20,000 nucleotides of DNA from Elsinoe ampelina (lineage: Eukaryota), in NCBI GenBank assembly GCA_010093995.1, contig ML992513.1, positions 286,143-306,142 on the forward strand, written 5' to 3'. Positions 646-20,000 of the stretch are shown here, in pieces. The first letter of the stretch is position 1. Every line of letters begins with the position of its first letter. The notes beneath the pieces are model-generated. The model saw only the letters and a program-made list of their open reading frames with translations. It was not told where the DNA came from and ran no database searches. The translations under genes and the position numbers were made by a program.

Positions 646-1665
646 TCGACCATGCTGAGCCATCAGACAAGAACATCCGCCCGAACGAAAGTACGCATGG
701 GCAGAAACCTCCCCGACGCGTCCGCACGCAGAATTTCTGCACGTCGAAAAGAGCGGAGTGATAGCGTCCACACTCTTTCGTTAAGAAGAGTTGCGCTATA
801 CAGTAGTGTACATGGCAAGAACAAGGGTGCTCGCAGTACGAGAATCGGAAGATAGTTCATGAACCCAGAAGCCGTCGTCTTTCGCTCCGTCCCGGGCTGT
901 CTACCACGTATCCCAAAACTCAAAAAGTCACAACTCGTAACGATGACGCGCCGGTCGGGAAAGTTGCCATTGATGAGACGATGCACTTTGTCGGACCTGA
1001 CAAGCGGAGCTAGAGGGTATACGCAATCTCTGATTCACTAGTGAGGATCCGTACCACACGATCAAATCGTTTGATTCCAAAGTCACTCCCGAACACGGTC
1101 TTGTGAAACCACGTCCATAGGGATCCTTGCGCTGCGTCTAGCATGGCAGCGTACGTGAGCTCTGGGTGGTGAACCTCGCGGGTGATCGTTCCACGGAGCT
1201 TAATGCCTGTTGGGAATGCTGCTCGTGTGCGCTGCCTGTCGATGAACTCGGTCGTCTTCCTCGGGGCAGTAGCAGGCCGTGATTTGAGCTGCTCGGTTGG
1301 CTCTGATCGAAGTGCTGACATGTCTTGGACGGGGATGGGTCGTCGTATGTGGATATGGGTTGTGCTGTTTATCAATGTCGGCATCTATACGCGTGGCGGA
1401 CCGTGAGGGGGGTCCTCTTCGCTTTTCGGAATATGTTCGTGTGACTTTTAGACGGTTTATGGGTATTGGATCGTTGAGGATGAGACACTGTCGGGTGAAC
1501 AGCCTCGGTCGGCCAAAGACTAATTCTGACGTTTGTGTCATCATTCGTTGCTTTCTGTTTGGTCACGTACGCTGTGTGATACTACCAGGCATCTAAAGCC
1601 GACCACAAATCTCCTTCACAGACATGGTAATTGCACCGAGAAATCCTAGTCGCTCTTCTCGACTC

Positions 1666-3332
1666 TCAAATCGTCTCTACTCTCAACATAGCCGGCACCC
1701 CTTGCTGCAACCCAGCACTAACCCCACTCGTCCTACTCTCCATCCCCTCCGCATCCCCTCCCCTCTCCCTCAACGCCTCCTGTAAACTAATCACACTCCC
1801 CTCCTCTCCCCTTCCCCCCTCGTGGCCCCTGGCAAACACCCGCCTTATACCCCTCGCCAACCTACTCCCTCCCACAAACACCCCGTTCGTATTAAACACC
1901 TCCTCGATACCCTCCAAACTCAACCCCTTGGTTTCCGGCATGAACGACCACAGTAACACCACGCTCGTGAGGCAGAATCCGCCGAAGAGGAAATACGCCC
2001 CGTAACTACTCTCCGCTAGAAAGATAGGCGTGAGGATTGTGACGAGCCAATTCGTGAGGAACCCGATCCCCTGCGCGACGCAATTCGCCATGCTGCGCGT
2101 CTGGGGAGGTTGGATCTCGGAGGCGTAGATCTTGCCTACAATACCCCATGTGCAGCAGTAGGTCAGGCCGAAAATGAAGACGAGGGAGATGACGAGGAAG
2201 CGCGCGGGCGAGGTGGGGGTTATGGCGTTGCTGGCGTAGAGGGAGCCGATGAGCAGCATGCAGGTTGTGAGAATCAGGCCGCCGGTGAGGGTAATGGAGC
2301 GGCGGGTGAAGCGGTCGGTGAGGAGGAGGGCGGGGATGGTGATGGCGAACATGAGGATGGCGGAGACGCCGGACGCGATGAAGGAGGCGGTGGTGGCGGG
2401 GAGGCCGGCTTGAGCGAACAGGCGGGGCGCGTAGTAGAGGACGCCGTCGATACCGGAGAGTTGGATCATGCCGAGCATGATTAGGGCGAGGGTGGTGCGG
2501 GTGCGGTAGGGGGCGGAGAAGATGGTGAAGATGGCGGTGAGAGGGTTGGGCTGGGCGGTGATGGTGCGAGCGGCGGAGGGGCCGAGGAGATCCTTTTCGG
2601 CTTCGATAGGGGAGAAGTTGAGTCGTTCTAGTTGGCGGATGGCGTCAGAGCGGCGGGATTGGAAGAGCAACCAGCGGGGAGATTCAGGTAGGAGGTTGCA
2701 AATGATGGCGAGGAGAAGACCCATGCCGGCTTGGATGATGTAGATGGAACGGAAGGACCAGATGGAGTCGACCTTGACGGTGCCGTATGCAGTAAAGTAC
2801 CCACAACAGATGCCGAATACTACACCAAGTTGAGGAGTCGCCATGAGCATACCACGTCGCATTGACGGAGCGATCTCGGTGACGTAGACTGCTTGAGGGG
2901 CCATCCAGGTGCCCATCCCAATGCCGCCTATCGCACGACCAGCGAGGAAGATCGAAAGCTTCGGGGCCATTCCCTGCAGAAGAGCGCCAACGACGAAGAG
3001 GAGAGCACCAATCATGATCGCTCGTAGTCGACCGACATAATCCGCAAGCTGTCCAGCATAGATTGACGGGAATGCACCTGTCAGTAAGATCATCGATACC
3101 GTGAGTCCATGCATGAAAGGAGTGAGTTCGCCGAAGGTCTGATGGAAGTATGGCATTTCGGTCACTGCTCCGGCTGAGCCTGTATCGTAGCCATTGAGCC
3201 AACCTTTTGGCTGTCAGTAGACCGTCAAACGAAGCCCTCAAGGGCGTTCTTGCCTGCTACCGAGATGAAGCAAGTCGCGACCACATAGCCGGGAGGCTTG
3301 AATATCCTTGGGGAGACTACGCCGAATGTCAT
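1666..3332 (-). CDS. MFS sugar porter family transporter, ~538 aa, 2 exons (3332-3254 and 3203-1666)
   Basis: Sugar-porter motifs GYDTG, LADYVGR, EIAPSMRRG, PESPRWL, QLSGIDGVLYY, DRFTRR, SEIQP, PETKGLSLE and many hydrophobic segments. The frame extends upstream of the ORF-track start (GWLNGYDTGSAGAV). Exon 1 MTFGVVSPRIFKPPGYVVATCFISVA joins across a 50-nt intron to give SVAGWLNGYDTG. Confidence 0.93.
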
Positions 3333-3951
3333 CTTCGGCACCTTGTTAGCGACTCTAGACCAGGGAACAAATTGATCACCGAGATTTGGTCCTGGACGTT
3401 GTTCTCGAGATATGAGAGATACTTATCCTGACTCCGTCTCGTGGTTGTGAGAGATCGGCGAACAGTGGGCCGATAGCAATCTGACGCTGGAGGATTGTGA
3501 CTTCATTGCTTAACAATCAATTCACCAGCTCCTATCTGAGGGCGACGTTGGGAGCAAGACAGCCATTCATGCCATCGACAATGGCTGAGGTCCGTCGTCG
3601 CAGGGCAATAGTGGACTGTGTTAGAGTTTGCAGTAAGGTTTGAATTACTCTTGTCGAAGTGTGAATCAATTTGAATCACATGACTTCGCGTTTTTGTCAA
3701 CCGAGGCATAAGCTGGAGCGCTAAGAAGACCCTGAATCAGTTCATCCCAAGGTTGAACTAAACACTATCTTACTATTTTACTAATCCATGATCAAATTAG
3801 ATAATTATTGTCTTAATCTGCTACTATTAAGGAGTTCTTTTAATTTAGCTATCTTTTAGTATACTAGGTTAAGTATTTATATAGTTATAATCTACCTTAT
3901 TTTAGTAGTTTAGGTAGTAATTAATTCTTTTTCCTCCCCTATATAAATTAA

Positions 3952-3964
3952 TAGTTATAAGTCT
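3952..3964 (+). other. Putative copia primer-binding site (RIPed TGGTTATGAGCC, complementary to the tRNA-iMet anticodon stem-loop); implies a 5' LTR at about 3750-3951
   Basis: TAGTTATAAGTC differs from TGGTTATGAGCC only by three transitions and lies ~160 nt upstream of the gag start. The LTR termini cannot be fixed without the partner LTR. Confidence 0.5.
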
Positions 3965-4121
3965 AGTATAACTACCCTTATATAAGTATATTACTTAGTT
4001 ACTTTCCTACTCTATTTATTAGTTAATTCTCTACTATCTTGCTTTTTAAGTATTAGAATCTATTAAGAACTACCTTAACTATAACTATAGAATTTAGGTA
4101 TTAATAAAGGGATAAATAACT

Positions 4122-6046
4122 ATAGATACTAATACCTTAATAGCTAGAACACCTATTATTCTTGCTATATTAGCTAAATAGGCTAGCTAGCTATATATTA
4201 TTAAGATAAGAGTATTAAATACTAAGATATAGAACCTTATTAATCCCTAGAAAACTATTAAACTAGAAGGGCTTCCTAAGCCTTAGAGGCTAAAGGTAGT
4301 AAATACTAACTTCTTAGTATTCTTCTAGATATATAAGGAGGAATAAGCATAATATAACAAATAGTATAAGGCCTTAACTAATTTAGCTAGCCTTATTTAG
4401 TTATTAATTACACTATAAGTTCTTACTATTATCTAACTAGAAGGGGATCCTTATCTATAGGCTATCCTTAGAGTATTAAAGAATAGATTTACTCTATCTA
4501 ATATAGCTATTTAGCTTAAGGTTAAAGCACTCTAGAGGAAGTAGCTATCTAGCTCTTCCTTATAGAATATAGACTATTAGCTTTAGTAATAGAAAGAGGT
4601 TATAGANNNNNNNNNNNNNNNNNNNNNNNNNNNNNNNNNNNNNNNNNNNNNNNNNNNNNNNNNNNNNNNNNNNNNNNNNNNNNNNNNNNNNNNNNNNNNN
4701 NNNNNNNNNNNNNNNNNNNNNNNNNNNNNNNNNNNNNNNNNNNNNNNNNNNNNNNNNNNNNNNNNNNNNNNNNNNNNNNNNNNNNNNNNNNNNNNNNNNN
4801 NNNNNNNNNNNNNNNNNNNNNNNNNNNNNNNNNNNNNNNNNNNNNNNNNNNNNNNNNNNNNNNNNNNNNNNNNNNNNNNNNNNNNNNNNNNNNNNNNNNN
4901 NNNNNNNNNNNNNNNNNNNNNNNNNNNNNNNNNNNNNNNNNNNNNNNNNNNNNNNNNNNNNNNNNNNNNNNNNNNNNNNNNNNNNNNNNNNNNNNNNNNN
5001 NNNNNNNNNNNNNNNNNNNNNNNNNNNNNNNNNNNNNNNNNNNNNNNNNNNNNNNNNNNNNNNNNNNNNNNNNNNNNNNNNNNNNNNNNNNNNNNNNNNN
5101 NNNNCTATTCTATAGTAATACCTTACTTAGTATTAAGAGTTAAAGAACTATTAATATTATAGCTCTTTATAAAGGAAAGTCTATAACTATCTATCTTATA
5201 AAGGTAGCCTATATACTATTAATTATAACTAATCTAGTTAGCCTTAGGAGGTTTATTAATAGTAGAGTCTACTAGAACACTTAAACTATAGAGATTAGCT
5301 ATAAAGGAAAAGTACTCTTCTTAGTTATACTAAAGTATAACTAATATATCTTTAAGAATAACTCTAAAGCTTCTAATATTACTACTATAGTATTAAGGAA
5401 TAATAATAATTGTCTACTATTAGTATTTACTATAGTTACTATAAGGACTAATTAATCTTAGTATAAAGTTATAGACTATCTAAGCCTAGAGTCTATTAAT
5501 TACCTTTTAACTGCTATAGTTAGTAGTAAACTAACTCTAACTAAGCCTAGTTTAGCTTAACTAATTTATCTTAGGTCTCTATATTAGACTTATAAGCTAT
5601 TAAATACTTAGTAGATTATATTAAGAAGCTCTAACAATAAACTTACTATATTAAAGCTATTTAAGAGAACTACCTTTAATATTATTATTAATAGATTTAC
5701 TAGCTATAATAAGGTAAGATATATAAGCTACTTTACTTATAGGACTACTAACTATTAACTAGTTACTACTTATACTTATAGATATAAGATTAATAAAATC
5801 TATATTAAGATAATTACTTATATTAAAAGTAATTTTAGCTTCAAAATTAAATTCCTTAGAAGTAATAATAAGAGAGCCTTTAGCCTTAAATTTACTATCT
5901 TCCTAAATAGTAAAGAAATCTATTATAAGCTATCTACTTTCTATACTTAAGCTTAGAATAGTTATAATAAAAGGATAGAAGCTATACTATTAAGGAGAGT
6001 AAGGGCAATTACTATCTTTACTAATCTACTAAGGGAATTATACTCT
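4122..6046 (+). pseudogene. Copia gag-protease-integrase, 5' part (spans the assembly gap), RIP-inactivated
   Basis: Start ATA (RIPed ATG) at 4122. In-frame stops are TAG/TAA at positions that read as Trp/Gln in conserved motifs. Confidence 0.8.
4607..5104. other. Assembly gap (498 N)
   Basis: Run of N between the copia gag and protease segments. Confidence 1.
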
Positions 6047-6233
6047 TATTAAAGCCTTATATTAAAGCTATATATATCGTAATATAGAGAACGCCTATTT
6101 AACTAAATAGTCCGTTAGTAGTAGAACTAATTACTATTAAGCCCCGGGCGTAAGCGCTACGTAGGATATTTAAGTACATTATGTAAGCGGAACTAGCTAC
6201 TACTAAGTGCCGCTCTAATACTAAGCTCTTATA
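6047..6233 (-). repeat. 3' LTR of G1
   Basis: Ungapped direct repeat of 12551-12737 with 13 mismatches by my count, all transitions. Termini TA...TA are RIPed TG...CA. Confidence 0.95.
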
Positions 6234-6237
6234 ATTG

Positions 6238-6248
6238 CCTCCTCCTCT
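6238..6248 (-). other. Polypurine tract of G1
   Basis: Minus strand AGAGGAGGAGG ending 4 nt before the 3' LTR. Confidence 0.8.
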
Positions 6249-6671
6249 AGGAGAGCTATCCTTAGCTCTCGACCGGAAGTGTGTAATATATAGTATTATT
6301 TAGAGGTAATATAGGCGTAAGGTAGTTAAGGCATTTTTATAAAGGCCTCGTATATGTCTTATATAATGTCTAGTAGTAGTAGTCCTAGGAATCTAGTTCC
6401 TAGGGGAGCGTTTGTCTAGTCGCTATAGCGCTAAAGCTAATCGGCAGTAATAATATTACTTTTCTTAGAATTTCTAGTAGTATTATAGGAGATATACGCC
6501 TTGTGCTAGTAGCTATAATAAAGATATAGTACACTAGAGGTTAGTCTATATTATCTTATTATTCCCCCTTATGTTCTTCTTTTCTACCTAAAACACATTT
6601 ATATTTTATTAACCTCTTACTATATAAGTATACTACCTATAACTATTATATTATTTAACTCCGGCCCCCCT

Positions 6672-7443
6672 ATAGCTAACACTTATAGCGTAAGGTCTAC
6701 TAGCGCCTAGGGAGCTATTACTGCTAGCGCTAACTCTATAACTCTCTTACTTTCTAAAGAGAAGGCTAATACCTATACTAGGTATACTAATAGCGTCGCT
6801 AAGAGTAAGCTAATAGAGCTCTTATAAGGGACATAACTAATTTATAGTAGGTCGTGTCTATACTAGAGGTAACTTTAGTATCTTCTTCTATTATAAGTGC
6901 GAACACTACGCCTATAATAAGTATATATACGAGCTACTTCTATCTATCCTATATAACTTATACATCGACGCCTTTAACATAGTTACTAAGCTTAAGGCCC
7001 CCGACTAGGCCGGCATCACTGTAGCTAAGAAGTATATATATACTATAGCCTATAAGAACGTCTCTAAGGTTAAGAAGTTTAAGACTATACTTAAGGTATA
7101 CTACACTAATAAGAACAAGGTCGTTAGTAAGGTCTTAACTCCTCGTATAGGGCCTATAGGTAGCTTACTTAGTAGTGTTATACTTAAGCGTAAGAAGGTT
7201 AAGAAACTATAGAAGATTAGGTATAGCCTTTATAGCTTAATTACTATCGGCAAGGAGGTAAGTTAAACTATGCTCTATATGCGTTATAAACATAGCTAAT
7301 AGGTTTAGATAGTGCGTAACTCTAGTAGTTCTACTACTAAAATCGACTATATTATAGCTAGTAGGTAGCTTATAGCCCCTATAGCACCTATAGGGGAGAA
7401 TCTTAGTATAGAGGTAAACGAGGAGGATAGTAAGGATAAGTAG
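6672..7443 (+). pseudogene. Antisense accessory gene inside G1: 3 exons (6672-6804, 6851-7257, 7309-7443), ~224 aa, six-Cys cluster plus helical region plus acidic tail; RIP-damaged
   Basis: Only four in-frame stops (TAG at 6708, 7006, 7210, 7366) over 225 codons in TA-saturated DNA. Introns are GTAAGC...CTAAT...TAG (6805-6850) and GTAAGT...GCTAAT...TTTAG (7258-7308). Intron 1 repairs a frame change. De-RIPed pattern is C-x2-C-x9-C-x12-C-x2-C-x6-C, with one intact TGC and five TAT/TAC codons. Confidence 0.72.
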
Positions 7444-7641
7444 GCACATACGAGACAGGTGTACGTCCCTAGCGCTATACCTATAATAAGGCCTTATATA
7501 GAGCATAATAGAGCATAGAGTTTAGGTTAATACCCGTAATAGTAGCGCAAGTATAGCGCTTTATTAAAATATATTTCCCTAGGTAAGGAGTCTACTCTTT
7601 ACTCTATTTATATATTTATATAATCTATCTACTTATATACT

Positions 7642-10600
7642 CTATAATCTACGCCTTTAGTAACCTTTCTTAGCTACTCTTAGCTATAACTTGTATATAG
7701 TAATTAGCTCTCTTATATTTACGTAATTCTCTTTAGGTTCCTAGCTATTAAACTTAATAGGCTAGTCCTTCTACTTTACTAAGTAGAATACCTTACCCTT
7801 TGTAGTTCTCCTGCCTAGAATCTTCTCTACTATCTACTTATCTACTTCGTTAGCGAGAGGTATACTCTCTTCTAGCTCCTTACTAGCTTTACCTATCTAT
7901 AGTTTAAGAAGAGATATATAAAAGACATTATAGATGTAATACTAACTCAGTAAAGCTAGGTAATACGCCTATAATTTAATTGTGTCAAGTATATAGAATA
8001 GGCTAAGGAATTGTAGTTCTATCTTCTTCTTTAGTATAGGTAGCTATAAGTTCTTAGCCGAGAGTAGTACTAAGTTACCTATACTATATACCTTTAGTAT
8101 ATACTTCCTATTGTAGTACTTAGCCTAGTAGGCGGAAGCCTCTTTCTATTACTCTACTAGCTTCGTATATATGTCTTATAAGCGTTATACTAACTCTACT
8201 ACTACTAGTACTCTTCTCTCTAAAGTCTTGTCCCGAGACTTAATAGCTATTACCTCTAACTCTAGATAGTAGCTATATATTATTTAGAAGAGGCTTATAC
8301 GTAGTATAGTATAAACGCTATTATTGCTTATAAATTCCACTTGTAATAGACGTTCGGCCTAGTCGTTCTATAGCTCTATATAGTAGTACCTTAGGTACTA
8401 TTCTAACATCTAGTTTTACTACTTAGTTTAACTATCTATCTACGAGTAAAAGGCTATACTAAGCCTACGCTTTATATACGTTTCGTAACAGAATTTACTC
8501 TAGAACTAGCTAGTAAAGACCGATCCTCGATTGCTTACTATTCCCCCCTAGGACACTATAATAGCGAATAACGTAGTTATATAGAATCTCTGCTAGCTCT
8601 ATAGACGTGCACTTCTTAGTAGTAGGGATATATAGTAATATCTTAGTGTAATAGTCTACAATTACTAGTACTATATTATAGACGCTACTACCTCGCTTGC
8701 TCGGTAGTAGGTTAGTAATAAAATCTATTATAATTTCTTACTATAGGCGGTCTAGTATCGGTAGCGTACGTAGCTCGCTATAGAGGTAATAGTAGCGCGC
8801 CTTATACTTCTAGCAAACTTAGTATAACTATATATAGTTATTAATATCTTTTCTTATAGTTAGCTAGAAGTATTTCTATAATAGGAGCTTAAGCGTCTTA
8901 TCCTTACTAAAGTAACTAGCCTATTCGCCGTTATAGTATATACATAGTATCTATGCCTTAAGCGCGCTATTATTCGGAATAACTAGTAACTCTTTATAGA
9001 AGAGAAGATTATCTTATATATTCTATAGCGCTCTACTTTTGTCTCTACTACTCCCCGCTTATAAACGTAGCTTTATAATCTCGAAGTCTTATTCTTATAG
9101 TAGCTCTACTACTAACATTAGGTTAGTAGACGAATCTTTAAAGGGATCCTCCCTTATAGTTGCTATAACTACGACTCGCTAGGTCGTTATAAGCCTCTAG
9201 AAGTTCTTAAAAGAGAAGTTACTACTATACGGCGTATAGGTAGCCTAGGCCTGTCCTAGAGTAGCCTTGTATATAGCGTAGATATGTCTAATAAGCGGAG
9301 TAGCTTTCTTAACGTTAGTAGTCTAGTCCTATATATAAAGCTTGTTCTAAAGGGTAGAAAGGAGATATAATACCTCTTACTCTTCCGCTACGTAGTTAAG
9401 GCGCCTCGAGAGTGTATTAGCTAGGTTCCTCGTGCCTAGCTAATGCTCTATTATAAAGTTAAAAGCAGTAAGGAAGGTAGCCTAGTAAGCTTATTAGCTA
9501 TTTAGCTATTTTAGCTTTATAAATCCTTAGAGATTATTATAGTTAGTAAGTACTTAAATTATATATAAGGCACCTTCGAGGTAGTATTACTATTACTTAA
9601 ATATATATACAATTACTAATAGCTCTTAGTTATACATCTCGTAATTATACTTAGCTAGGATAAACTTCCTTAACTAAAAGGCTATTAGGTGCTAAGCACT
9701 ATTAAATAGTTAGGACAGAATCGCTGCTACTATAAACTTTAATATATTACTTTTAATATATAGGGGCAGCGTAGAATTATAGTAGCAGAGAATAGAGGTA
9801 CGCGTAAATATGTCTCTAATGTCCTTAAACGTCTACTATTTACTTACGCTCTACATAAAAGAGCTATACTTACGACCTTTTACTAAGCCTTTAAGGAGGC
9901 TAGAGAGGGGGGTAATAATCTTAGAGTAGTACTACACGAACTAATAATAGAAGTTTATAAAGCTAGTAAACTACTAGACCTTATAATAACTCTTTAGCCT
10001 CGGCTAATTCTTAATTATAGTTACTCTACTAGGATCTATTAAGACGCCTATAGTAGAGATAATATAGCTAAGAAATTCTACCTCCTTAGTAAAGAATTTA
10101 CATTTCTTAAGGTTAGTATATAAAGTAAACTTCTATAGCCTCGCTAGAATCTTATAAACGTAATATATATAGTTCTCTCTTAAATTGCTATAGATAAGAA
10201 TATTATCGAGGTAGACAATATAGATAGTATTAACTAGCTTACCTAGCGCCTTATTAATATACACTTAGAAGGTAGCTAGGGCATTAGTTAATCTAAAAGG
10301 CATAACTAAGTACTTAAAATAGCTATAGCACATACGGAATATAGTCTTCTACTTGTCGCTATACTTAATAGGGATCCTATAATAGGCATCCTTAAGATCT
10401 AGCTTCGAGAACTACTAGGCTTACCTAAGCTAATTAAGCGTCTTACTAATAAGTAGAAGCGGGTAGCGATTCTTAATAGTTACCTCGTTTAAGCCCTAAT
10501 AATTTATATATAAGTATAGACTACTATCTTTCTTAGGCACGAACAGGATAGAAGTACTTATCTCGCTTATAGAGCGCCTAATCTACCTATTTAATTAAGT

Positions 10601-11338
10601 AGCCTCGAGATAGTTCTTAAGTACTTTAAGCTCTTTAACTAAAAGATTATATAAGGGCTAAAATAGAGACCTTCTACCTAGCTCTAGCTTAATTACATAC
10701 TTAGCGCCTAGAGGGCGTAGTAGATTTATAATATCCTTATAGACAAAGACATCGAAGAACTCTATAAACTCTAATAGTAGAGCTAGGTCGTCTACGGCGT
10801 AAGTATAGTCCTTAGACAGAGTCTATACTATAGTATATACCCTCGGCTTGTTCTTAAGGTCCTTTATAAAGTCTTCTAGTTCGCGTAAGTAAACTATATA
10901 TAAGGAGTAGCTATACGACTAGTTGTCTATAGCGCTATCTATAATTATATACTATCTTCTCTACTATAGGCACTCTAAAATAACTAGAGGGCCTAGTCCT
11001 AAGTCTATAGCGTAGAAGAGGCTAATTGTCTCTCTAAGGTTACTATAGAAGTCTACTAGGCGTACGTAAAGCTAGTGCGCGCTATAGTAGAATTCGGCTT
11101 ACTCTATAAAGAAAGAGATACTTAGATACTAAGTATGCTTAACTCTTAGTAGATTATAACGAAGAGTAAATGCCTAAGACACAAGATTAACTTCTATATA
11201 ATTGTCTATAAGGAACGTATAGTTTTTGTGCTCTATAGGCACTATAATAGCGCTATAATAGGGCAGCGATAGATAAGTGTTAATTAGGAGAGAAGAAGGG
11301 CTTAGTTACGCTCTTTAGCTAAGCCCTTAGAGTTTCCC
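7642..11338 (-). pseudogene. pol: G1 pol (protease, RT, RNase H, integrase, chromodomain)
   Basis: FLIDN protease site (~11201-11215), FSKLDLKDAY (~10382-10411), IVYLDN = YLDD (10219-10202), integrase I(M)DFIT (~8715-8735), IVS(D)RGSVFTS (~8510-8540), RLSTAFHPQTDGQT de-RIPed (~8425-8470), chromodomain VEKILGRRTTKGKVFYLVK(W)KD(W)P...S(W)EP (~7735-7835). One extra base in a C6 run at 8543-8548 shifts the frame. The 3' end is approximate. Confidence 0.93.
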
Positions 11339-12510
11339 GACTTAGAGTTATTAGACTTGTCTATAGTAGTAACCTTATACACTGCCTAAGACTCGCTATT
11401 CTTCTATAGGTGCTTCGACTTATACTCCGGCTTAATATAACTAGTTTTACTACAACTATAGTACTTAGCGTTTCTCTTCTACTTATCGAAGGAACCTCCT
11501 TACCTACTAAACTATTTAGTAGGTAAGTTAGTAGCTTTACGCTTATAGTAAGCTTAAGAGCTACTACTAGACTAGTAGTAGTATTCTTCTCGAGAGCTAC
11601 TATAACTACTATACTTACGTAGGTAGTTACTTTTATCTTTCTATATAGTATACTTACTACTAGTATAGTCTATAGACTTAATACGTAAGCCTAAAGAGAC
11701 TAACTTCTAGCACGTAGCTAGAATAGTATAGTGTTTAATAATAGTAGTACGTAGCATAGGCTATAGCTTAGTAAGGAGATAGTATACCCTCTACTCTTTA
11801 GAGTAGAGAGCTAGTTACTTCTTAAGGGTAGTAAGTTCTAAGGCGAAGGCCTAGATAGATTAGCCCTTATATTGTTAGGCTCCCTTATATATAAGAGTTA
11901 TACGCACTCTACGATTAATAGGGTTATTAACTGCGTTCTATATAAACTAGCGGAATTACTCCTACGTATAGTCTTCTAGGCTATCTATATAGTAGTAGTA
12001 GTACTATATCTTATCTAGCTCGCCTATAAGGAATATAACTTTATATAGCACCTTCTACTAGTTAGTAGAATAAGCCTTAGGGGCTAGAGTAAAGATAACC
12101 TCGAGATTCTTTAGGAAGGATCTTACCTCTTTTAGAGTCTTACTCTAGTAGAGATAGAGTTCCCTTAATCGAGGTTGTCTAGAGAATAGCCTTACGAATA
12201 GTCCGCCGCTACTATATATACTCTATATGCTAGTATTACTTACTATAGGCTTAGTAGAAGCACGCGAGCTATAGTCGAAGCCTCCTTAGTAGTATTCTAT
12301 ATCGCGTATATAGTGTATTTACTTAATCTCTTCCTCGAGGCTCTAAGCCTTAAGCTTTAGCTCTAAATACTTATACTTAGCATATAGGTGTAGTAGCTAC
12401 TCCGTAAGGGTCTCTTCTTTCTCTAGGGGAGTCTACTCGATAGAGTCTATCTCTATAACATTAATTACGTAAGGTACTAGCGCCTCGCTAATAGAGTTCT
12501 AGTTGTCTAT
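11302..12510 (-). pseudogene. gag: G1 gag
   Basis: ATA (RIPed ATG) at 12510 is in frame with the zinc knuckle K[C]YSC[G]KT[GH]IKPE[C] (~11420-11466) and with the slippery site G GGA AAC. Stop TAA at 11304-11302. Confidence 0.82.
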
Positions 12511-12550
12511 AGAGTCTAATAGATTACAACTGTAGGGGAGTAATTAGAAC

Positions 12551-12737
12551 TGTTAAAGCCTTATATTAAAGCTACATATATCGTAATATAGAGAACGCCT
12601 ATCTAACTAAATAGTCCGTTAGTAGTAGAACTAATTACTATTAAGCCCTAGGCGTAAGCGCTATATAGGATATTTAAGTATATTATATAAGCGGGACTAG
12701 CCGCTACTAAGTGCCGCTCTAATACTAAGCCCTTATA
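12551..12737 (-). repeat. 5' LTR of G1
   Basis: Starts TGTTAAAGCC on the plus strand and matches 6047-6233. Gag begins 41 nt inside it. Confidence 0.95.
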
Positions 12738-12742
12738 ACTCT

Positions 12743-13480
12743 AAACTATATAGATTAGTAGCCTATCTAATTAATAGAATACCTCTTAAGAAGCTAGACT
12801 AAAAGACTCTCTTTAAGCTAGTTTATAGATGTCCTCTATTAGTTACTTATCTTAGGCTACTTAGATATAAAGCTTATACTTTAGATAAGCTTATTATAAG
12901 TAGTAATAAGCTTATACTAAGGGCTTATATTAGCTATCTAGTTAGCTATAACTTAACTAACATCTTTAGGATCTTTATATTAGCCTCTAAGAAGGTTATT
13001 AGAATAAGAGATATTAGATTTAATAAAACTTCGTTCTATAAGCTAGAGGAATAACCTTAGCTAAAACTAATTAGATTACTTAATCTACTAAGGCTCCTAT
13101 AGGAGGTTAATAAATCTAAAGGAGTATATAAAGCAGAGAGAATAACTAAACTAAATCTAGTTTAGAATCTAGTTTAGAATCTAGTTTAGAATCTAGTTTA
13201 GCATCTAGTTTAGTATCTAGTTTAGAATCTAGTTTAGAATCTAGTTTAGTAGCCGAACTAGATACTATCTTAGACTCTAAGTTAGAGTAATCTAGATTAA
13301 GAGCTAAGCCTATCTTAGTAGCTAGATAAGAGTTACCCTATTATACTAGATTAGTTACTACCTCTATTAGACTAATTAGAAAAGGCTATTCTAGATCTAA
13401 ACCTAGCTTAGACCTAGGAATCTTTACTAAATAAATAGTTCTTTAATGCTCTAGCCTTACTACTATCTATAGTAGTATAG
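12743..13480 (+). pseudogene. Copia integrase C-terminal half and IN-RT linker (continuation of 4122-6046)
   Basis: Removing G1 plus one TSD copy rejoins ...GAA TTA TAC TCT|AAA CTA TAT AGA TTA GTA GCC TAT CTA ATT AAT AGA ATA CCT in frame (LPRELYPE...AAYLINRTP de-RIPed). Confidence 0.9.
13154..13249 (+). repeat. 12-bp minisatellite, 8 copies of (A/C/T)ATCTAGTTTAG, inside the copia IN-RT linker
   Basis: Directly visible tandem array. In the integrase frame it reads N-L-V-stop, i.e. RIPed (N/H)-P-V-Q. Confidence 0.95.
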
Positions 13481-13943
13481 TGTTACGAACTAGTAGGATA
13501 GCTAGAACGTAGGGACGTTAGGACTAATTAAGCTACTAAGATTATTACGTAACCTGGCCCGACATTTACCCGGTTCTCTATCTTCTCTAGCGGCTCTACC
13601 TCTAAAACTATAGAGCGCGTAGGTTACTAGTAGACGTGTACTCTATATTGCCCCCGACTCTCGCTACGAAGTATATAGAGCATACGGAGAACATAATAGA
13701 GAACACATATATATAGGAATAGTCCTTACCTTATGTAAGTACTATAGTTAACCTCGTCTAGATAGCGAACACTAGTATTACTAAGGCTAGCCTTTATAAT
13801 ACTATCTAATTGTACTTTATTATCTATAGGATATACCTTCTCCGACTCTTACCTTAGTACTATACTACTATAGAAGTAGAACTCCCTCGTTCTTAGCTTA
13901 GCTTAGACTACTAGTGTAGACTGTATTTAGACAGTTCGTAACA
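13481..13943 (+). repeat. 5' LTR of G2 (463 bp)
   Basis: Perfect 11-bp terminal inverted repeat TGTTACGAACT...AGTTCGTAACA. The copia frame is cut at 13480 and gag ATG lies 117 nt downstream. The partner LTR is not in the window. Confidence 0.88.
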
Positions 13944-14059
13944 TTTTAACTACCCTTACTATAGTATAGCACGCTATAAGGTTAATAAGTAACTCTCGCT
14001 CTAAGTTACTATTAGCATCTTCGATTACTAGTAAGCTAGGAAAGCTTACTATTAACGAC

Positions 14060-16045
14060 ATGTCTACTACTAGTTTAACCTCGGGCGAATATAGAAGGTC
14101 TCTTAGTATAGGGGAAGGACGGAGTAAGCCTAAGTTAGAGGTAGAACTCTTCTATAGGGACCGTGCCTACTTAAGGCGCTTCCTTGTTTAACTTAAAGCC
14201 TTCTTCGCTCTAGAGGGAGACAAGTACGCTAACGACGTAGCAAAGGTCCTCTATGCCGGGATACACCTTAAAGGCGCCGCCTTTAGGTAGTTTAAGCCTT
14301 ATATAAGTGGCTACCTAGATAGATAACTAGGCCTAGATATAAAGGCTATCTTTAAGAGCTTTAGTATCTTCTAGGCAAAGATTAAGTAAGTCTTTAACGT
14401 ATCTAATAAGGAACATGTCGCTACGACAAAGATCTAACAACTACGACAACGTAGGTCTATAGCCTAGTACTATTTCTAGTTCTAATAACTCGTAATGTAC
14501 CTAGACTAGAATAATAGTACTAAACATTTAGTATTCTACTAAGGACTAAGCGACTTAGTTAAAGACTAAATGATACTCGAGCTACCTAATAGCCTCTAAG
14601 AACTAGTAGATACCGTAATTGCTATTAATAACCGACTTTATAAACGACGTATAGAACGTTATAGAGGATATAAGGCAAACACTAGATATACGCGTTCCTC
14701 CCGAAACTATAGAGACCCTATAGAACTTAACGCTATACGCGAAGGTTGCCCCTTATAGGTATAAGGCTAAAGTTGTAGAGGAAAGTTCCTTAGTAGAAAA
14801 GAGAGAGAGAAGTATAGATAAGACAATCTATGTTTTAAGTGTAAAAGACTTAGGCATCGAGCTAGGGACTACCGACAAGGGGTACTAGCTAATAGATTAC
14901 ATATAATAGTTACTAGGCTAGTAGAGAAAAAGGCCGACACTACTATAGAAGACCTAACGACCTTTAGCGTAGGTAAGGAAATATAGAAGAAGTCTACGAC
15001 AACTCGAGAGGTAATAGAATCCTCTCCGGATGTTACGCTTAATATCTCTATAACTAACAGCGAATAACAAAGTTAATACGCAACGCTATTATAGATAGCA
15101 TATTATAATAACTCTTATTATATTTACTTATTAGACAAGTAGGGATCTAGTTAGTTCCTATATAAGCTATCTAAGCGTAGGTAACTAACGAAATAGCTAG
15201 ACTAGGAACTTAACCTAGAAGAGCTCTCTATAATTAGTAGTAACAGTAACTAACCTTAGAAGGTAGTTAGCGACAATTACTAATATACAATTATCGAGAC
15301 GAAGTATTAGGACGCGAGTGCTATATAATAATATAGTAGCCTTACCTTTAGCCTTTATAGCGAACTATAAGGAAAGGCAAATTATATATCGCTCTAGAAA
15401 TATACAAATCTAGATTGCGAATAGTACTATACTATTTACTTACACGATGTACTTAGAGAAGAGGCTATTAGTCTTAAATATACTACGGACTTCTCGGTAA
15501 TTGAAATAGGTAGTACTATTCCCTATAGCTAAGTACGGGAATGTACTTAGTATAGCCTTACTAACTATAACTATACTAGAGATAGTAGCGACGAAGAGGA
15601 ATATAACGAAGAATATGCCGAACAACTATAATATAACAACATAGATAACAATTTATCTAATAACAACAATAACGTACTACTATCGGGCAGACGACTTAAA
15701 GTATACCTTATAGGGATATAGAGAAACTATATAATAATATACACCTATTACTAGAATAGAACATAACAAGACAAATCTACTTAACCTACTTTCGTCTTTA
15801 ATGCTAATACCTAGCTACACCTAGAGGGAATAGTTATACTAATATAAGTATATAACACTACTTAGTGTAACTAATAGAGGATTATCGAACTTTACGGTCA
15901 TTAAGGAACTTAAGCACTAGAAGTCTACCTTGCTATGTTAAACAATAATAAGACACGACTAGCCTAATAGGTATAATATTAATAATAGATACGTGCGAGA
16001 AGGGATTAACTACTTATCTAAGGCGCTATAATGACAAAAAACTAG
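14060..16045 (+). pseudogene. gag: G2 gag with a long C-terminal extension (~660 codons)
   Basis: ATG 14060; ELFY[G]DRA...LRRFL...KVLYAG...LKGAAFR[W]F capsid-type motif; zinc knuckle CFKCKRL[G]HRARD[C] at 14831-14872. The same frame ends ...ACA AAA AAC TAG at 16045. Confidence 0.85.
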
Positions 16046-19000
16046 CTAGTTATCGCCTAACAAGGCAAGACAATAACACTAGCTAAAGCCTTAATATAAT
16101 AAAGATCTACACGTTAAATTACTTTATACTAGAAGTTAAAATATAAGGGAGTAAGGTAAGAGTAATAATAGATTCGGGAGCTAACTAAAGCTACGTCTCT
16201 ATAATAGTTACTAATTAGCTTAAACCTTATTAACACTAGAAGGAGTTACCTTACCTACTTACTATAGCGGATAGAACCCCTATAGGGAAGGATAGGAAAG
16301 TTACTTAGGAACTACGAAACGTTATAATCTAAATCGAAACATATACGGAAAAACAATTAATCGATATAGTTAACATGTAGTATAATATAGTACTTAGCAT
16401 AGACTAGCTACAACAATATAACCTAGACGTGGACTAGATTAAAGAAACACTTGAATTTCCTAAGTGTAATTATAGAACGTAGGGAGCATAATTAGCTCTA
16501 TAGATACTAACTATAAGGACAGTATAGGTACGACTAATAGTTAGAGCTATCGCTAGCATAAGTAATTAAGTACTTCCGCTAGAATACAAAGACTTCGAGG
16601 ACTTGTTTAAAGAAAGAGAAGGCATTACGGCCTTACTCTAACATAAACTATAGAATTACGAAATACTCTTTAAAGAGAGTAAACCCCCGACACACTATTA
16701 AGGTCTTATACTACTATCGAAACAAGAGGAGGACGTCCTTAAGAACTATATTAATAAGTACTTACTTAAAGGATTTATACAACTATTAAAATCACCTATT
16801 GCGTACGGAGTGCTTTTTGTACCTAAAAAGGATAGAACGTTACGAATATATATTAATTACTAGAAACTTAATGCACTTACTAGGAAGAATTACTATCCTC
16901 TACTAAGGATCGACGAACTTTAAGACCGACTACTTAGAGCTAAATAGTTTACCGTAATTGACATTAGGGACGCCTATTATTAAGTATAAATAAAGGAGAG
17001 CAAGGAGTAGAAGACGGCTTTTAGGACATAATAGAGTCTATATAAGTACCTTATTATACCCTTTAGGTTAACTAATACTCCTATAACCTTCTAAGAGTTA
17101 ATTAATAACACTCTATAAGAATACCTTAATAACTTTATCTTAGTATATTTAGACAATATTATTATCTTCTTAAAGATATATAACAAACACGTAGGACATG
17201 TTCGTAAAGTGCTATAGAAACTAAAAGAAAAAGACCTACTAGTAAAACTCTCTAAGTATAAGTTCTATAAATATAAGATATAATTTCTAAGCTATATTAT
17301 ATCTACTAATAGTATCGGACTCGATCCGAAGAAGATTAAGTTAGTAAATAACTAGCCGGAACCTACGATAGTTAAGGAGGTTTAAGCGCTACTAGAGTTC
17401 TTTAACTACTACTATAAGTTTATAGAAGGATTCTCTAAGGTAGCTACGCTAATATCTAACCTTACGAAAAAGGAAACTAGCTTTGTCTTTAACGAGAGAT
17501 ATAGGTAGGCCTTTAAGGAGCTAAAGCTTAGGCTTATAATAGCACCTATCCTAGTACTCTTCGACCTAGACCGACAAGTACTACTAGAAATAGATGCCTT
17601 AGACTTTGCAATAGAAGCGTATCTAGCGTAGAAGAATATAGAAGGACGACGCTACCCGATCGTATACTACTTACGAAAAATGACTAGACCTAAACTTAAC
17701 TACGACATATACAATAAGGAATTACTTACGATTATAGAAGCGTTCTACGAATAGAGAGTATACCTAGAAGGGACAACCTTACCTATATAAGTCTATACCG
17801 ACTATAAGAACCTTCTATATTAGACAATAACTAAGGTTCTTAATAGACGACAGGTTCGATAGTTAGAAACACTTGTAAGCTATAACTTCTAGATCTACTA
17901 TATTAAGGGATTAGAGAATAGCGGAGTAGACGCTCTTAGCTGCCGGCTAGATTACTTAAAAAACATAACAATAATAGAGGCCTCTATACTAAAGTAGTAA
18001 GACGGCGCTTTAGTCTATAAGTACCTAAAGGTAAAGTAGTTATATAGCCTTACCTAGGAGCTTACGTAAGAACAGAAAAAAGAAGTTATTTAAATATACT
18101 ATAATAACCTAACTATAGGACATAGTAGGATTAATAAGACTATTAAACTTATTATACGAAACTACCTCTAGAAAGAACTCCAAAACGATGTTAAGATGTA
18201 TATCGCTATATACGATATATACTATAAGTCTAAACACTCTCGATATAAACTATATAGCCTACTATAACCCTTGCTACTACTAGACAAACTATAGCAATCA
18301 GTTACGATAGACTTTATAGGACCTCTACTACTATTAGAAGAACCTCTTATAGGTATAAAGTACAATAGTATTCTAGTCCTAGTAGATAGGTTTACGAAGT
18401 ATTACTACTTTATACTATATAAGACAATAGTAACCGCCGAGAATATAGCCTTTACCTTCCTCCGAATAATTGTTTTATAACATAGAGTACTACGAGACCT
18501 AATAACTAACAGGGATAAGCTATTTACGTCATAATTCTAGTAATTATTTATAGACCTACTAGGAGTTAAACATAAGCTATTAACCTCCTTTTACCTATAA
18601 ACGGACGGACAAACTAAATAGGCAAATTAAGTACTAGAGTAGTACCTACGATGCTACCTAAACTATAAGTAAGACTTATAGGCGACGCTATTACTACTCG
18701 TAGAGCTCGCTATTAACAATAGAAAGTTAGTAAATAGAATTTTACTATTCTATATAAACTATAGAATATACCTGGATCTATACTATAACACACTTAGAAT
18801 TAAGCTAGTATCTAAGGATGCTAATATACTAGTAGCTAATATTAAGAAACTATATAACTAGCTATACTACGATATAGTATTTATATTACAAAGAATAGCA
18901 AAGTTTGCTAACTAGAAGAGAATTACAGGACTAATTCTATAGAAGAGAGAGAAAGTTTACCTCCTTAGTAAAAATATTAAAACGAAATAACTAAGCAAGA

Positions 19001-19415
19001 AACTTAACTATACTAAACTAGGACCCTTTAAGATCCTAGAAAAGAAAAATAAGAATATATACAAACTAGAACTACTAAGATATATAAGGATCTACCTAGT
19101 CTTTTATATATTACTACTAAAGAAAGTACTATAGAATGCTATACCTAGACCTATTAAACTAGATAAAGAAACATAGGAGCCATAGTATAAGATTAAAAGG
19201 GTTTTACGTTATAAACTTATAAAAGGAAAACGCTACTATCTTATTTACTAGAAGGAACATTAGTATAGCGAAGTAACATAGGAACTAGAGAAGCACCTTA
19301 CCTCGTAAGTAATTCTAGATTACTAGATCGAGAATCTATCCTAAGTAAACTAACTAGACAGACCTAGCACTCTAAACACTAAATAAAAACGAGAATACTT
19401 AAGGAAGACTACTTA
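16036..19415 (+). pseudogene. pol: G2 pol (protease, RT, RNase H, integrase, chromodomain)
   Basis: IDSGA (16168-16182), IDIRDAY (~16957-16977), YLDN = YLDD (17146-17157), LE[T]DA[S]DFA (~17584), NYDI[HD]KELL (17698), T[M]DF (18304), FHPQTDGQTE de-RIPed (18589-18618), GPF (19021), chromodomain Y[E]I[E]RVL...YLI[HW]KE...T[W]E[P]EKHL (19186-19299). The motifs I frame-checked share one frame. The end is approximate. Confidence 0.95.
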
Positions 19416-19961
19416 ACTAACAGGAGCGCTCTAATTATTACTAAATAAGGAACCTTAATTAGAGTCGAGCATAAATAACTACTAATCCTATAGTAGAACG
19501 GGATCTACCGACAATAGTATTTCCTCTTACTCTAGAACTTAAATACGGGTTTCCTCTAGAGAGATTACTTTCTCCGCCTTGTTCTCTAACTTTTATATCT
19601 CTTTACATAGGTAAAGCTTATTGCCTATAGCTCTTTAATAAGCCTCTTTTGCCTTTTTATAAGCTTCTTTAGCTTCCCTTCTAGTAGCCTTAGCTATAAC
19701 TAATTCCTTTCGTAAACGAATGTACTTAGACTAGAGACACTACTATTTTAATTTTGTTACTTAAATATTATAACTCGAGTAATTACTTACAACACACTAG
19801 CTATAGATACTCGACCGAACATAGACCTTATAGTCTAGCCCCTTCGATTTGCAACGAGAATAAGCCTATAGTATATTAGTTCTAAATAGTTTAATAAACT
19901 CTAAGAGATTCTTTCGTATAGATGTGCTAGATTCGCTATGCCTTTAACAACTAGGAGGCAT
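19413..19961 (-). pseudogene. Antisense accessory ORF inside G2: Zn2Cys6-like cluster plus coiled coil, ~180 aa; RIP-damaged
   Basis: Intact ATG at 19961 (MPPS...). 19862-19770 reads [C]SRCKSKGLD[C]KVYVRSSI[C]S*CVVSNYSS[C], where each [C] is TAT (TGT after RIP reversal), giving C-x2-C-x6-C-x8-C-x2-C-x7-C. An A/E/K/R-rich helix follows (RLRKELVIAKATRREAKEAYKKAKEA...KLENKAEKVISLEETRI). The stop position is approximate. Confidence 0.8.
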
Positions 19962-20000
19962 ATTTAGTACATAGCGCGTAAAGACAAGAAAGAATACTTA

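Follow-up and report, generated by a model that had tools for sequence, protein, structure and literature searches.

A RIP-inactivated Ty3/gypsy element of Elsinoe ampelina bears the relic of an antisense gene with a six-cysteine cluster, and an unrelated element may carry an analogous one

Genes that run opposite to gag-pol near the 3' end have been described in several kinds of LTR elements. Among plant Ty3/gypsy elements, ORFs of this type behind pol and ahead of the 3' LTR are reported for maize Grande, rice RIRE2 and Silene Retand (TRP28); in the sections of the two sources that treat them, they occur in most copies of a family, and nuclear or DNA-binding regulation is proposed for their products and described as unproven (PMC11963269, PMC7264820). 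Retroviruses make the antisense proteins HBZ (HTLV-1) and APH-2 (HTLV-2), as summarised in PMC11963269. A sequence-only reading of the DNA studied here, which proposed that two different chromoviruses each encode an antisense zinc-cluster protein downstream of pol, knew no characterised fungal example, yet brtn, the antisense gene of the Boty-like chromoviruses of Botrytis and Sclerotinia, was already in print (Zhao et al. 2011, Virology 417:248; as cited in PMC8365987, PMC7264820, PMC4227169 and PMC5987419). The antisense gene of the type found here, G1, belongs to this kind already described in fungi (Boty brtn) and plants.

The window, that is the whole 20-kb stretch of DNA analysed, is filled from about position 3500 on by RIP-mutated repeat DNA, within which two different Ty3/gypsy elements, E1 and E2, were found. 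The earlier description of the two as dissimilar held, with nucleotide likeness between them limited to two short RT stretches. The TpA/ApT ratio was 2.14 in E1 and 1.98 in E2 compared to 0.60 in the genes at 1-3300, and (CpA+TpG)/(ApC+GpT) was 0.21 and 0.27, respectively, compared to 1.18 in the same genes; both indices were judged against the usual thresholds. Mismatches between contigs of the same DNA sample were mostly transitions, with 516 C>T, 478 G>A, 293 A>G and 277 T>C changes compared to 53 transversions in run X1. TpA excess, CpA/TpG depletion and C>T/G>A differences among copies, the signs of RIP, were thus all observed. The CCHC knuckle of the E1 gag (11422..11463, - strand, from motif reading) at present reads Y-x2-C-x4-Y-x4-Y and illustrates, within E1 itself, how RIP turns Cys/His codons into Tyr. 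Since this knuckle and the cysteine positions of the intact G1 homolog described below show Cys or Tyr codons, the earlier reading of Tyr as former Cys was justified.

E1 lies on the - strand at 6049-12738, as delimited by its LTR pair, Pfam domains and polypurine tract. The LTRs, direct repeats of 186 nt each at 12553..12738 (5' LTR) and 6049..6234 (3' LTR), share 93.5-94% identity, and the polypurine tract AGAGGAGGAGG, read from the sequence at 6238..6248, precedes the 3' LTR by 3 nt. RT, RNase H and the zinc-binding region of integrase were matched by Pfam at 8537..10939 (RVT_1, E 3.2e-19; RT_RNaseH_2, 7.3e-11; Integrase_H2C2, 4.2e-5), with a frame shift in pol near 8581. SH3_Tf2-1 was also matched when stops were read as X, and a chromodomain closes pol at 7690..7833 (Pfam Chromo, E 1.5e-5, 25.2 bits at a cut-off of 25.1). 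With RT, RNase H, integrase, SH3, chromodomain, LTR pair and polypurine tract, E1 has the features of a chromovirus. A spacer of about 1.45 kb separates the purine tract from the chromodomain end at 7690, and this spacer bears the relic of a protein-coding gene, G1, antisense to pol. As the sequence-only reading had stated, G1 (6672-7443, + strand) is downstream of a pol that runs on the - strand, the position and strand that characterise the antisense ORFs of Boty (brtn), Grande, RIRE2 and Retand.

G1 as first given measures 772 nt, which is not a multiple of three, so that a frame change is needed. A candidate intron of 43 nt at 6805..6847 (+), with GTAAGC ... ACTAAT ... TAG, would account for this change; without it G1 is 729 nt, or 243 codons. 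The putative exon 1 (6672..6804, +) was placed by a match to residues 31-41 of the homolog KAF4546987.1 upstream of the main alignment, and its frame has only 0-1 stops per 60 codons over 6523-6792; the start codon, now ATA, may formerly have been ATG. Exon 2 (6848..7443, +) was placed by alignment to the same protein and by codon score. The first CxxC falls in exon 1, with TAT at 6774 and TAT at 6783, and cysteines 3-6 of the cluster correspond to 6859 (TAT), 6898 (TGC), 6907 (TAC) and 6928 (TAC). Only one of the six is a real Cys codon at present, and all six positions are Cys or Tyr codons. After the cluster, exon 2 would encode a probably helical region with an acidic end. The codon score of 6672-7443 was +13.6 in the exon 2 frame, a value reached by none of 1000 shuffles; the score selected the G1 frame, and the same score chose the right frame in both gag controls. 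The six-Cys cluster and the longer region behind it stood as the earlier reading had them, whereas its ORFs of 180-225 aa did not: there are 8 internal stops in the 242 codons of the two-exon G1 model and 16 in the candidate relic of E2, G2, and no ORF of at least 80 aa (table 11) was listed on the G1 and G2 strands of those regions.

Recovery of G1 relied on a full HMMER search, in which stops were masked, and then on asking if C>T/G>A changes alone could produce the mismatches. A word-seeded search missed even the gag of the same element. Among 1.84 billion proteins the sole HMMER match (E 1.7e-4) was KAF4546987.1, which is annotated in Elsinoe fawcettii as a hypothetical protein of 213 aa and whose residues 41-170 align to 6850-7248 (BLASTP 1e-14, tblastn 1.6e-9). 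The alignment covers 133 residues in a single frame at 33% identity, with whole-codon gaps over about 400 nt. Identical or RIP-reachable codons were found at 81 of 129 positions, compared to a null of 25.3 +/- 4.2 (0 of 5000 permutations), and the five cysteines of KAF4546987.1 within the alignment, four of them from the cluster, all fall on Cys or Tyr codons. For residues 31-41, the best RIP-reachable match within 290 nt upstream was at 6774, with 8 of 11 residues reachable (0.04 expected). When KAF4546987.1 was aligned to the six frames of 5105-20000 by a RIP-aware Smith-Waterman procedure, G1 was the top region with a score of 459 and the runner-up had 275. Because a database homolog was found and the RIP-reachability test was passed, G1 is, on this sequence evidence, a real gene relic beyond chance. 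A RIP-destroyed gene was recovered in this way, by a stop-masked HMMER search combined with a C>T/G>A reachability test.

KAF4546987.1 is an uninterrupted ORF with an acidic C-terminal tail, and its cysteines at 31, 34, 44, 57, 60 and 67 have the spacing CX2CX9CX12CX2CX6C. It forms a singleton cluster, is encoded on an 18-kb contig and is annotated as an ordinary gene. The AlphaFold2 single-sequence model gave helices at 72-89, 97-129 and 149-172, with a mean pLDDT of 43.5 that makes it unusable. In the Atlas, clusters that comprise 157, 63 and 52 Ascomycota proteins are neighbours of KAF4546987.1 (0.91-0.92), which we regard as a lead only.

The status of KAF4546987.1 as a lone hypothetical protein, on a short contig, without family match and with a poor structure model, would suit another explanation, namely that its likeness to G1 is DNA homology of a non-coding spacer and that the E. 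fawcettii protein is a miscalled ORF. We consider this very improbable. A non-coding spacer would hardly keep a single frame for some 400 nt, at no more than 33% identity, with codon-sized gaps and every cysteine conserved, the same G1 frame carries an independent codon-usage signal, and KAF4546987.1 is uninterrupted over all 213 aa; its Atlas neighbours, as a lead, point the same way.

The cover of the spacer bears on how G1 entered the element. Summed contig depth, which is a sum over contigs of the same DNA sample at >=80% likeness and not a copy number, was about 14300-14600 at 6515-7446 and about 12000-23000 over the remaining E1; at 19097-20000 it was 46726-63843, as heavy as in the remaining E2. 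As cover of the spacers equals cover elsewhere in E1 and in E2, the spacers probably belong to the element families. G1 could still be a host gene transduced by the E1 lineage, a passive cargo with no role in the life cycle: transduction accounts for some extra ORFs of LTR elements, as the relevant section of PMC11963269 reports, and the only homolog is annotated as an ordinary gene. However, the cover of G1 equals that of the remaining E1 and the gene would therefore have been present before the family amplified, while captured genes usually occur in one or few copies by the same account (PMC11963269). The position and orientation of G1 also fit the recurrent antisense class, as far as its published descriptions go, and we find simple capture unlikely.

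The second element, E2, runs on the + strand from about 13505 past the window end. Its probable 5' LTR, with approximate bounds of 13505..13970 (+), was recognised from a summed contig depth of 231166 compared to 50858-98693 in the E2 interior; the partner LTR would be beyond the window, and no LTR match for the 3' end of E2 was found inside the window. The gag lies at 14261..14551 (+; Pfam Retrotrans_gag, 3.1e-5), with a zinc knuckle at 14831-14872 (+) from motif reading, and pol at 16117..19128 (+) contains protease, RT, RNase H, integrase and SH3. Pfam matches in E2 were gag, RVP_2 (weak), RVT_1, RNase H, Integrase_H2C2 and SH3_Tf2-1. Pfam Chromo gave no match in E2 at E<=1; a chromodomain-like pol end at 19150..19335 (+) matches the E1 chromodomain weakly by BLASTP (E 0.003), which makes E2 a candidate chromovirus. 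The spacer after pol is at least 670 nt long, and 78 nt past the chromodomain-like end lies the candidate antisense relic G2 (19413..19961, - strand), the 3' LTR of E2 being outside the window.

G2 has an ATG at 19961, a Cys/Tyr pattern and a coding-like window. The pattern, YSRCKSKGLDYKVYVRSSIYS*CVVSNYSSY at 19862-19770 (-), has two real cysteines out of six, and a coding-like helical stretch follows at 19694-19515 (-) by codon score. For G2, the proposed strand opposite to E2 pol (-/+) was confirmed but the ORF was not: its frame has 17 TAA/TAG codons in 183, the terminal one included, and the cluster needs four Tyr as former Cys. The single family proposed for G1 and G2 found no support, with no similarity detected between G2 and either G1 or KAF4546987.1, and protein searches returned no homolog of G2.

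It is possible, though we lean against it, that only G1 is a gene relic and that G2 combines a chance Cys/Tyr pattern with a purine-rich, Lys/Glu-like stretch, the E2 spacer being non-coding, 3' untranslated sequence. Its want of a homolog would agree with this, as would its stop codons, 8 of which lie in the last 43 codons, and the whole-region codon score, which is unremarkable and is reached by 85.7% of shuffles. The pattern itself was absent from all 3000 shuffles of the region, but shuffles understate its frequency: this permissive pattern occurs four times in the real RIPed DNA compared to 0.38 in shuffles, the three further sites including one on the sense strand of the E1 spacer, and the empirical chance for the G2 region is about 0.07. 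Against chance, the pattern adjoins the best coding-like window, the two share a frame and follow the expected order, and the frame is opened by a real ATG. That one 60-codon window scored an LLR of 11.7, reached in 4 of 1000 shuffles and in none of 465 windows read from known genes in a wrong frame. Taken together, the evidence for G2 as a gene relic is suggestive.

The Gal4-type consensus is CX2CX6CX5-12CX2CX6-8C. Membership of G1 in this class, as put forward by the sequence-only reading, is not supported by sequence, because KAF4546987.1 departs from the consensus spacing and shows no PF00172 (Zn_clus) match at E<=10. The first loop has 9 residues in KAF4546987.1 and 10 in the G1 model, compared to 6 in the Gal4 type. 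The Zn_clus HMM scan that had been suggested gave no match at E<=1 in the antisense frames of both spacers, a weak test for the window readings, whose Cys codons at present read Tyr. Sequence searches of the G1 reading and KAF4546987.1 against all PDB chains gave no match, and those of the G2 reading gave chance-level matches only, none to a zinc-cluster protein. That both products were nonetheless true Gal4-type Zn2Cys6 transcription factors that dimerise through a coiled coil appears quite unlikely. Some features recall that class: G2 fits the canonical spacing provided that four Tyr were once Cys, with Lys in positions +1 and +3 from the second Cys, and KAF4546987.1 has a second half-site C-x2-C-x6-C with basic residues as well as the acidic tail. 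The missing PF00172 matches, the long first loop and the empty or chance-level PDB searches speak against it. A DNA-binding, dimerising or regulatory role may be proposed for the G1 and G2 products from the cluster and what follows it.

The reading we favour, and think probable, is that E1 carries an antisense accessory gene, G1, homologous to KAF4546987.1, and that the unrelated E2 carries an analogous one, G2. E1 would be a chromovirus-type Ty3/gypsy element of high copy number that RIP has killed, with G1 as a two-exon gene of about 242 codons on the opposite strand between the pol end and the polypurine tract. Its protein would have an N-terminal six-cysteine cluster and probably a helical middle, followed by the acidic tail seen in the intact homolog. 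In E2, an unrelated gypsy family, G2 would probably be analogous at the same place and not detectably related to G1. G1 would be transcribed from integrated DNA, convergent with gag-pol, and its intron would outlast retrotransposition because the gene is antisense. The product may be a nuclear regulator that binds zinc and nucleic acid and controls how the element itself is expressed or silenced, the copies of G1 and G2 in this window presumably being dead relics.

A wider proposal is speculative and in our judgement rather unlikely: unrelated chromoviruses of RIP-prone Ascomycota would each have gained, in one and the same position, a small antisense six-Cys zinc-cluster gene whose product has a helical region and an acidic tail. 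Such genes would be distinct from brtn and encode regulators that bind DNA, as LTR transactivators or as anti-silencing factors, with intact members so far overlooked among hundreds of Ascomycota 'hypothetical proteins'. If the G1/KAF4546987.1 family is a regular passenger of fungal chromoviruses, a set of these proteins would be explained as retrotransposon accessory genes, and antisense regulators near the 3' LTR would be a feature of fungi as well as of plants and retroviruses. An element-encoded factor with sequence specificity, if real, would offer a handle on activation or escape from silencing in RIP-prone genomes.

Compared to Gal4-type proteins (PF00172), the cluster is similar in that its six cysteines form two C-x2-C-x(n)-C half-sites close to the N-terminus, ahead of putative helices, with an acidic tail in the homolog; it differs in the lack of an HMM match and in a first loop of 9-10 residues (KAF4546987.1 and G1), G2 offering the pattern alone. 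HBZ is of the bZIP type. HBZ and APH-2, as PMC11963269 outlines them, likewise are regulators encoded opposite gag-pol near the 3' end and made from integrated DNA, but they are unrelated proteins of animal retroviruses, and G1 and G2 are known here from sequence. Grande, RIRE2 and Retand have their ORFs in the same position and orientation as G1; in contrast, they are plant elements, mostly non-chromovirus, with the unrelated TRP28 (PF04195) and spacers of 2.9-6.6 kb in the accounts given (PMC11963269, PMC7264820). From its cited descriptions, Boty brtn is similar in that a fungal gypsy element with a chromodomain carries it as an additional gene, antisense to gag-pol, behind pol and ahead of the 3' LTR; the host fungus is another, the E1 and E2 copies are RIP-dead, and the likeness noted here is one of position and orientation.

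Bases 1-3500 had a GC content of 0.51-0.61 and held ordinary genes, including a sugar transporter on the minus strand (1666-3165; intact 499-aa ORF; Pfam Sugar_tr, 3.4e-75, and MFS_1); this host gene lies about 0.4 kb short of the block mutated by repeat-induced point mutation (RIP). From about 3500 onward the GC content was only 30-39%; a run of 498 N, either an assembly gap or sequence that was withheld, lay inside this AT-rich block at about 4606-5104. The TpA/ApT index was 2.14 in E1 and 1.98 in E2, the two Ty3/gypsy elements of the window, compared to 0.60 in the window's genes, and (CpA+TpG)/(ApC+GpT) was 0.21 and 0.27, respectively, compared to 1.18. Read against the usual thresholds for RIP dinucleotide indices, the AT-rich DNA from about 3500 bears the RIP signature. 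A single ORF of at least 80 aa was found in it (7237-7506, minus strand, 89 aa; table 11).

Domains in E1 and E2 were called with Pfam on readings in which stops were written as X. E1 (6049-12738, minus strand) was bounded by a 186-nt LTR pair (6049-6234 and 12553-12738, 93.5% identical), with AGAG ending its flanks on both sides and the purine tract AGAGGAGGAGG (6248-6238, minus strand) three bases ahead of the 3' LTR. It matched RVT_1 (3.2e-19), RNase H, Integrase_H2C2, SH3_Tf2-1 and Chromo (1.5e-5, 7833-7690). E2, on the plus strand, matched gag, a weak protease, RVT_1 (5.4e-18), RNase H, Integrase_H2C2 and SH3_Tf2-1, and its chromodomain resembled that of E1 weakly (E 0.003). At the DNA level E1 and E2 had two short RT stretches in common and nothing else, in agreement with the sequence-only reading that they are two different elements. 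In both, the spacer after pol (about 1.45 kb in E1, at least 670 nt in E2) had no explanation from the element domains.

One sample supplied two DNA runs, whose contigs were placed on the window at 80% likeness or more, with 1701 differing places. As 24764 and 15421 contigs matched 6049-20000 in the two runs, E1 and E2 represent abundant families. At 13505-13970 summed contig depth reached 231166 in X1, one of the two runs, roughly threefold the 50858-98693 of the E2 interior, as expected of the E2 LTR with approximate bounds; these bounds are loose because the 3' LTR of E2 falls outside the window. In other contigs of the same sample, E2-like or flank-like sequence (13133, 18167) ran straight into the outer edge of an E1-type LTR (6049), and therefore at other places in the genome E1-family copies are nested within these repeats. 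The E2 RT reading, searched against viral contigs, gave no confirmed related locus.

A Ty1/copia-type integrase C-terminal SH3 relic (12842-13039, plus strand; Pfam SH3_retrovirus, 7.8e-5) directly adjoined the E1 5' LTR. The insertion site of E1 apparently lies within or beside a third, copia-like element. At 66570-82219 in X1, depth of contigs over this relic was several times that of E1. Between it and E2, eight tandem copies of the 12-nt unit AATCTAGTTTAG (96% matches) occupied 13154-13249; the codon score of 12739-13500 is inflated because this unit repeats in phase. On the other side of E1, one plus-strand frame of 5200-6048, whose 283 codons include just 12 stops and whose codon score exceeds that of 97% of shuffles, may be another RIPed coding relic, although no frame there matched Pfam. 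Apart from the copia-type SH3 relic, nothing in Pfam matched either spacer or the flanks 3300-4605, 5105-6048 and 12739-13950, each read in six frames.

The two spacers had been read as each encoding an antisense six-Cys ORF, G1 in E1 (6672-7443, plus strand) and G2 in E2 (19961-19413, minus strand). Neither is open. G1 as claimed is 772 nt long, which is no multiple of three, and G2 starts with a real ATG yet has 17 TAA or TAG codons in 183, the last codon included. The reading also depended on taking Tyr as former Cys. This is legitimate in principle, because a change from TGY to TAY is of the RIP type and the gag knuckles carry such changes: the CCHC knuckle of the E1 gag (11422-11463, minus strand), the identity of which is certain, is now Y-x2-C-x4-Y-x4-Y and that of the E2 gag (14831-14872, plus strand) is C-x2-C-x4-H-x4-Y. 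The two knuckles form a built-in gauge of how frequently RIP converted Cys or His to Tyr here.

G1 was evaluated with a codon-usage score trained on RIPed pol genes, which picked the right frame in 17/26 and 26/30 cross-validation windows and for both gag genes. Over 6672-7443 the score picked the plus-strand frame of 6601 (+13.6), a value reached by none of 1000 dinucleotide shuffles, and just 5 of the 150 codons of this frame across 6700-7150 were stops. The G1 reading, searched in full with HMMER against 1.84 billion representative proteins, returned two matches. One, P0001, is a 2934-aa repetitive protein whose best stretch covered the Leu/Thr-rich query residues 14-45; it was taken as compositional and rejected. 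The other, P0002 (E 1.7e-4, query residues 83-215), is KAF4546987.1, a 213-aa hypothetical protein of Elsinoe fawcettii that forms a singleton cluster and is encoded on an 18-kb contig.

Pairwise BLASTP of G1 and P0002 gave 1e-14. With tblastn of P0002 on the whole window, the sole real match was 6850-7248 (plus strand, 1.6e-9), the other rows being low-complexity matches of the acidic tail in the GC-rich part. Among 129 aligned codons, 44 were identical and 81 were identical or, by C>T/G>A alone, derivable from some codon for the P0002 residue; permuted pairings gave 25.3 +/- 4.2 such codons and 0/5000 reached 81. The codons opposite P0002 Cys 44, 57, 60, 67 and 108 were TAT, TGC, TAC, TAC and TAT, respectively. 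A RIP-aware Smith-Waterman comparison of P0002 with six frames of 5105-20000 also placed G1 first, at 459, with the next best at 275 and a median peak of 237.

For the first CxxC of P0002 (residues 31-41), the best match upstream lay at 6774 in another frame, where 8 of 11 codons were reachable (0.04 such matches expected over 290 positions); the 6774 site was absent among the top matches of a longer ungapped scan with residues 25-43. Between 6806 and 6848 the frame changes, for which a candidate 43-nt intron (GTAAGC ... ACTAAT ... TAG) accounts; without that intron 6672-7443 comprises 729 nt, or 243 codons with 8 internal stops. Both this intron and the ATA start of G1 are putative. On this model the six cluster codons of G1 lie at 6774, 6783, 6859, 6898, 6907 and 6928. 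The G1 reading had no match among PDB sequences. Word-seeded protein searches with G1 (frame 6601) and G2 returned no match, an outcome that is uninformative, since the gag of E1 itself also went undetected by that tool. Taken together, codon score, homolog and RIP-reachability identify G1, as far as sequence can, as a real gene relic, so the claim of antisense genes is upheld for G1, though not as an intact gene.

The spacer that holds G1 sits within the E1 LTR pair. A nested insertion there was considered and rejected, as no internal terminal repeats were found and contig cover equalled that of the rest of E1. Summed depth (which is not copy number) over 6515-7446 was 14282 and 14607 in X1, like the rest of E1 (11985-22988); over 19097-20000 it was 46726 and 63843, like the rest of E2 (50858-98693).

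P0002 has the cysteine spacing CX2CX9CX12CX2CX6C and closes with an acidic run. Its second half, C-x2-C-x6-C with basic residues, is like a Gal4 half-site. G1 had been assigned to the Gal4-type Zn2Cys6 proteins (Pfam Zn_clus, PF00172); this assignment is not supported, since even at E<=10 P0002 failed to match Zn_clus and Pfam gave zero matches in any antisense frame of either spacer. No solved structure in the whole PDB matched P0002 by sequence, and an AlphaFold2 model made from the single sequence with no alignment was unusable (pLDDT 43.5). In the ESM Atlas, unnamed Ascomycota clusters of 157, 63 and 52 members lay beside P0002 at 0.91-0.92, and clusters partly with DUF3716 or DUF8257 at 0.78-0.80, which we treat as leads only. 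The cysteine-cluster part (residues 20-90) lay at 0.78 beside a cluster with DUF3716 in 28% of members; P0002 itself had no DUF3716 match in Pfam. The available portion of one report places DUF3716 proteins among the accessory genes of a Zymoseptoria class II (DNA) transposon (PMC8232023). Searches of viral contigs with P0002, and of metagenome contigs with P0002 and with an alignment (A1), confirmed no related locus.

For G2 the evidence was mixed. The stretch 19862-19770 fits the pattern [CY]x2[CY]x6[CY]x5-12[CY]x2[CY]x6-8[CY], its second and fifth positions being real Cys, and 0/3000 shuffles of the region contained this pattern. The six cluster codons lie on the minus strand at 19862, 19853, 19832, 19805, 19796 and 19772. 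In the same frame, 60 codons at 19694-19515 give a Lys/Glu/Ala-rich, helix-like reading with a codon score of 11.7. With every frame and window considered, 4/1000 shuffles of the entire E2 spacer reached this score, and 0/465 wrong-frame windows of known genes did. Against this, the actual RIPed DNA held 4 such patterns vs 0.38 in shuffles, one of them on the sense strand of the E1 spacer, so that the empirical chance for the pattern in its region is about 0.07. The codon score of the whole G2 region was unremarkable, and its last 43 codons hold eight stops. G2 showed no similarity to P0002, by RIP-aware scan either, and matched PDB sequences only at chance level (best E 0.12). A gene relic is therefore plausible and, if only just, the probable reading of G2. 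G1 and G2 had been proposed to form one family; tblastx and blastn of the two spacers found no similarity in any frame (best E 0.056), and one family is not shown.

Both copies in the window are dead. In a functional element, the integrated copy would serve as template for transcription of the accessory gene, in convergence with that of gag-pol, and the gene's intron could be retained through the element cycle because the genomic RNA would be antisense to it. The product may be a small protein of the nucleus. Its cysteine cluster would bind both zinc and nucleic acid, and its helical part and acidic tail might bring in partners, thereby tuning the element's transcription or silencing.

Among the papers listed by a literature search, none reported a Zn2Cys6 protein encoded by a retrotransposon. 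In the portions of the reports available, extra ORFs that run antisense in the interval from pol to the 3' LTR are described for maize Grande, for rice RIRE2 and for Silene Retand, 97% of whose clusters have the antisense TRP28 ORF (PMC11963269, PMC7264820). The sequence-only reading knew of no characterised fungal example; from the accessible parts of the sources, a precedent is the gene brtn, an antisense extra ORF in the same interval of Boty of Botrytis and Sclerotinia (PMC8365987, PMC7264820, PMC4227169), whose protein BRTN is matched by a Monilinia transcript (PMC5987419, likewise as far as available). Of the earlier interpretation, then, the antisense cysteine-cluster accessory gene stands; Gal4 membership and a single family are not shown, and there is a fungal precedent. 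Such a gene is, by its sequence features, present in E1 as a relic, and its kind appears already known from fungal brtn: likened by description and not by sequence, both lie antisense between pol and the 3' LTR of a fungal element.
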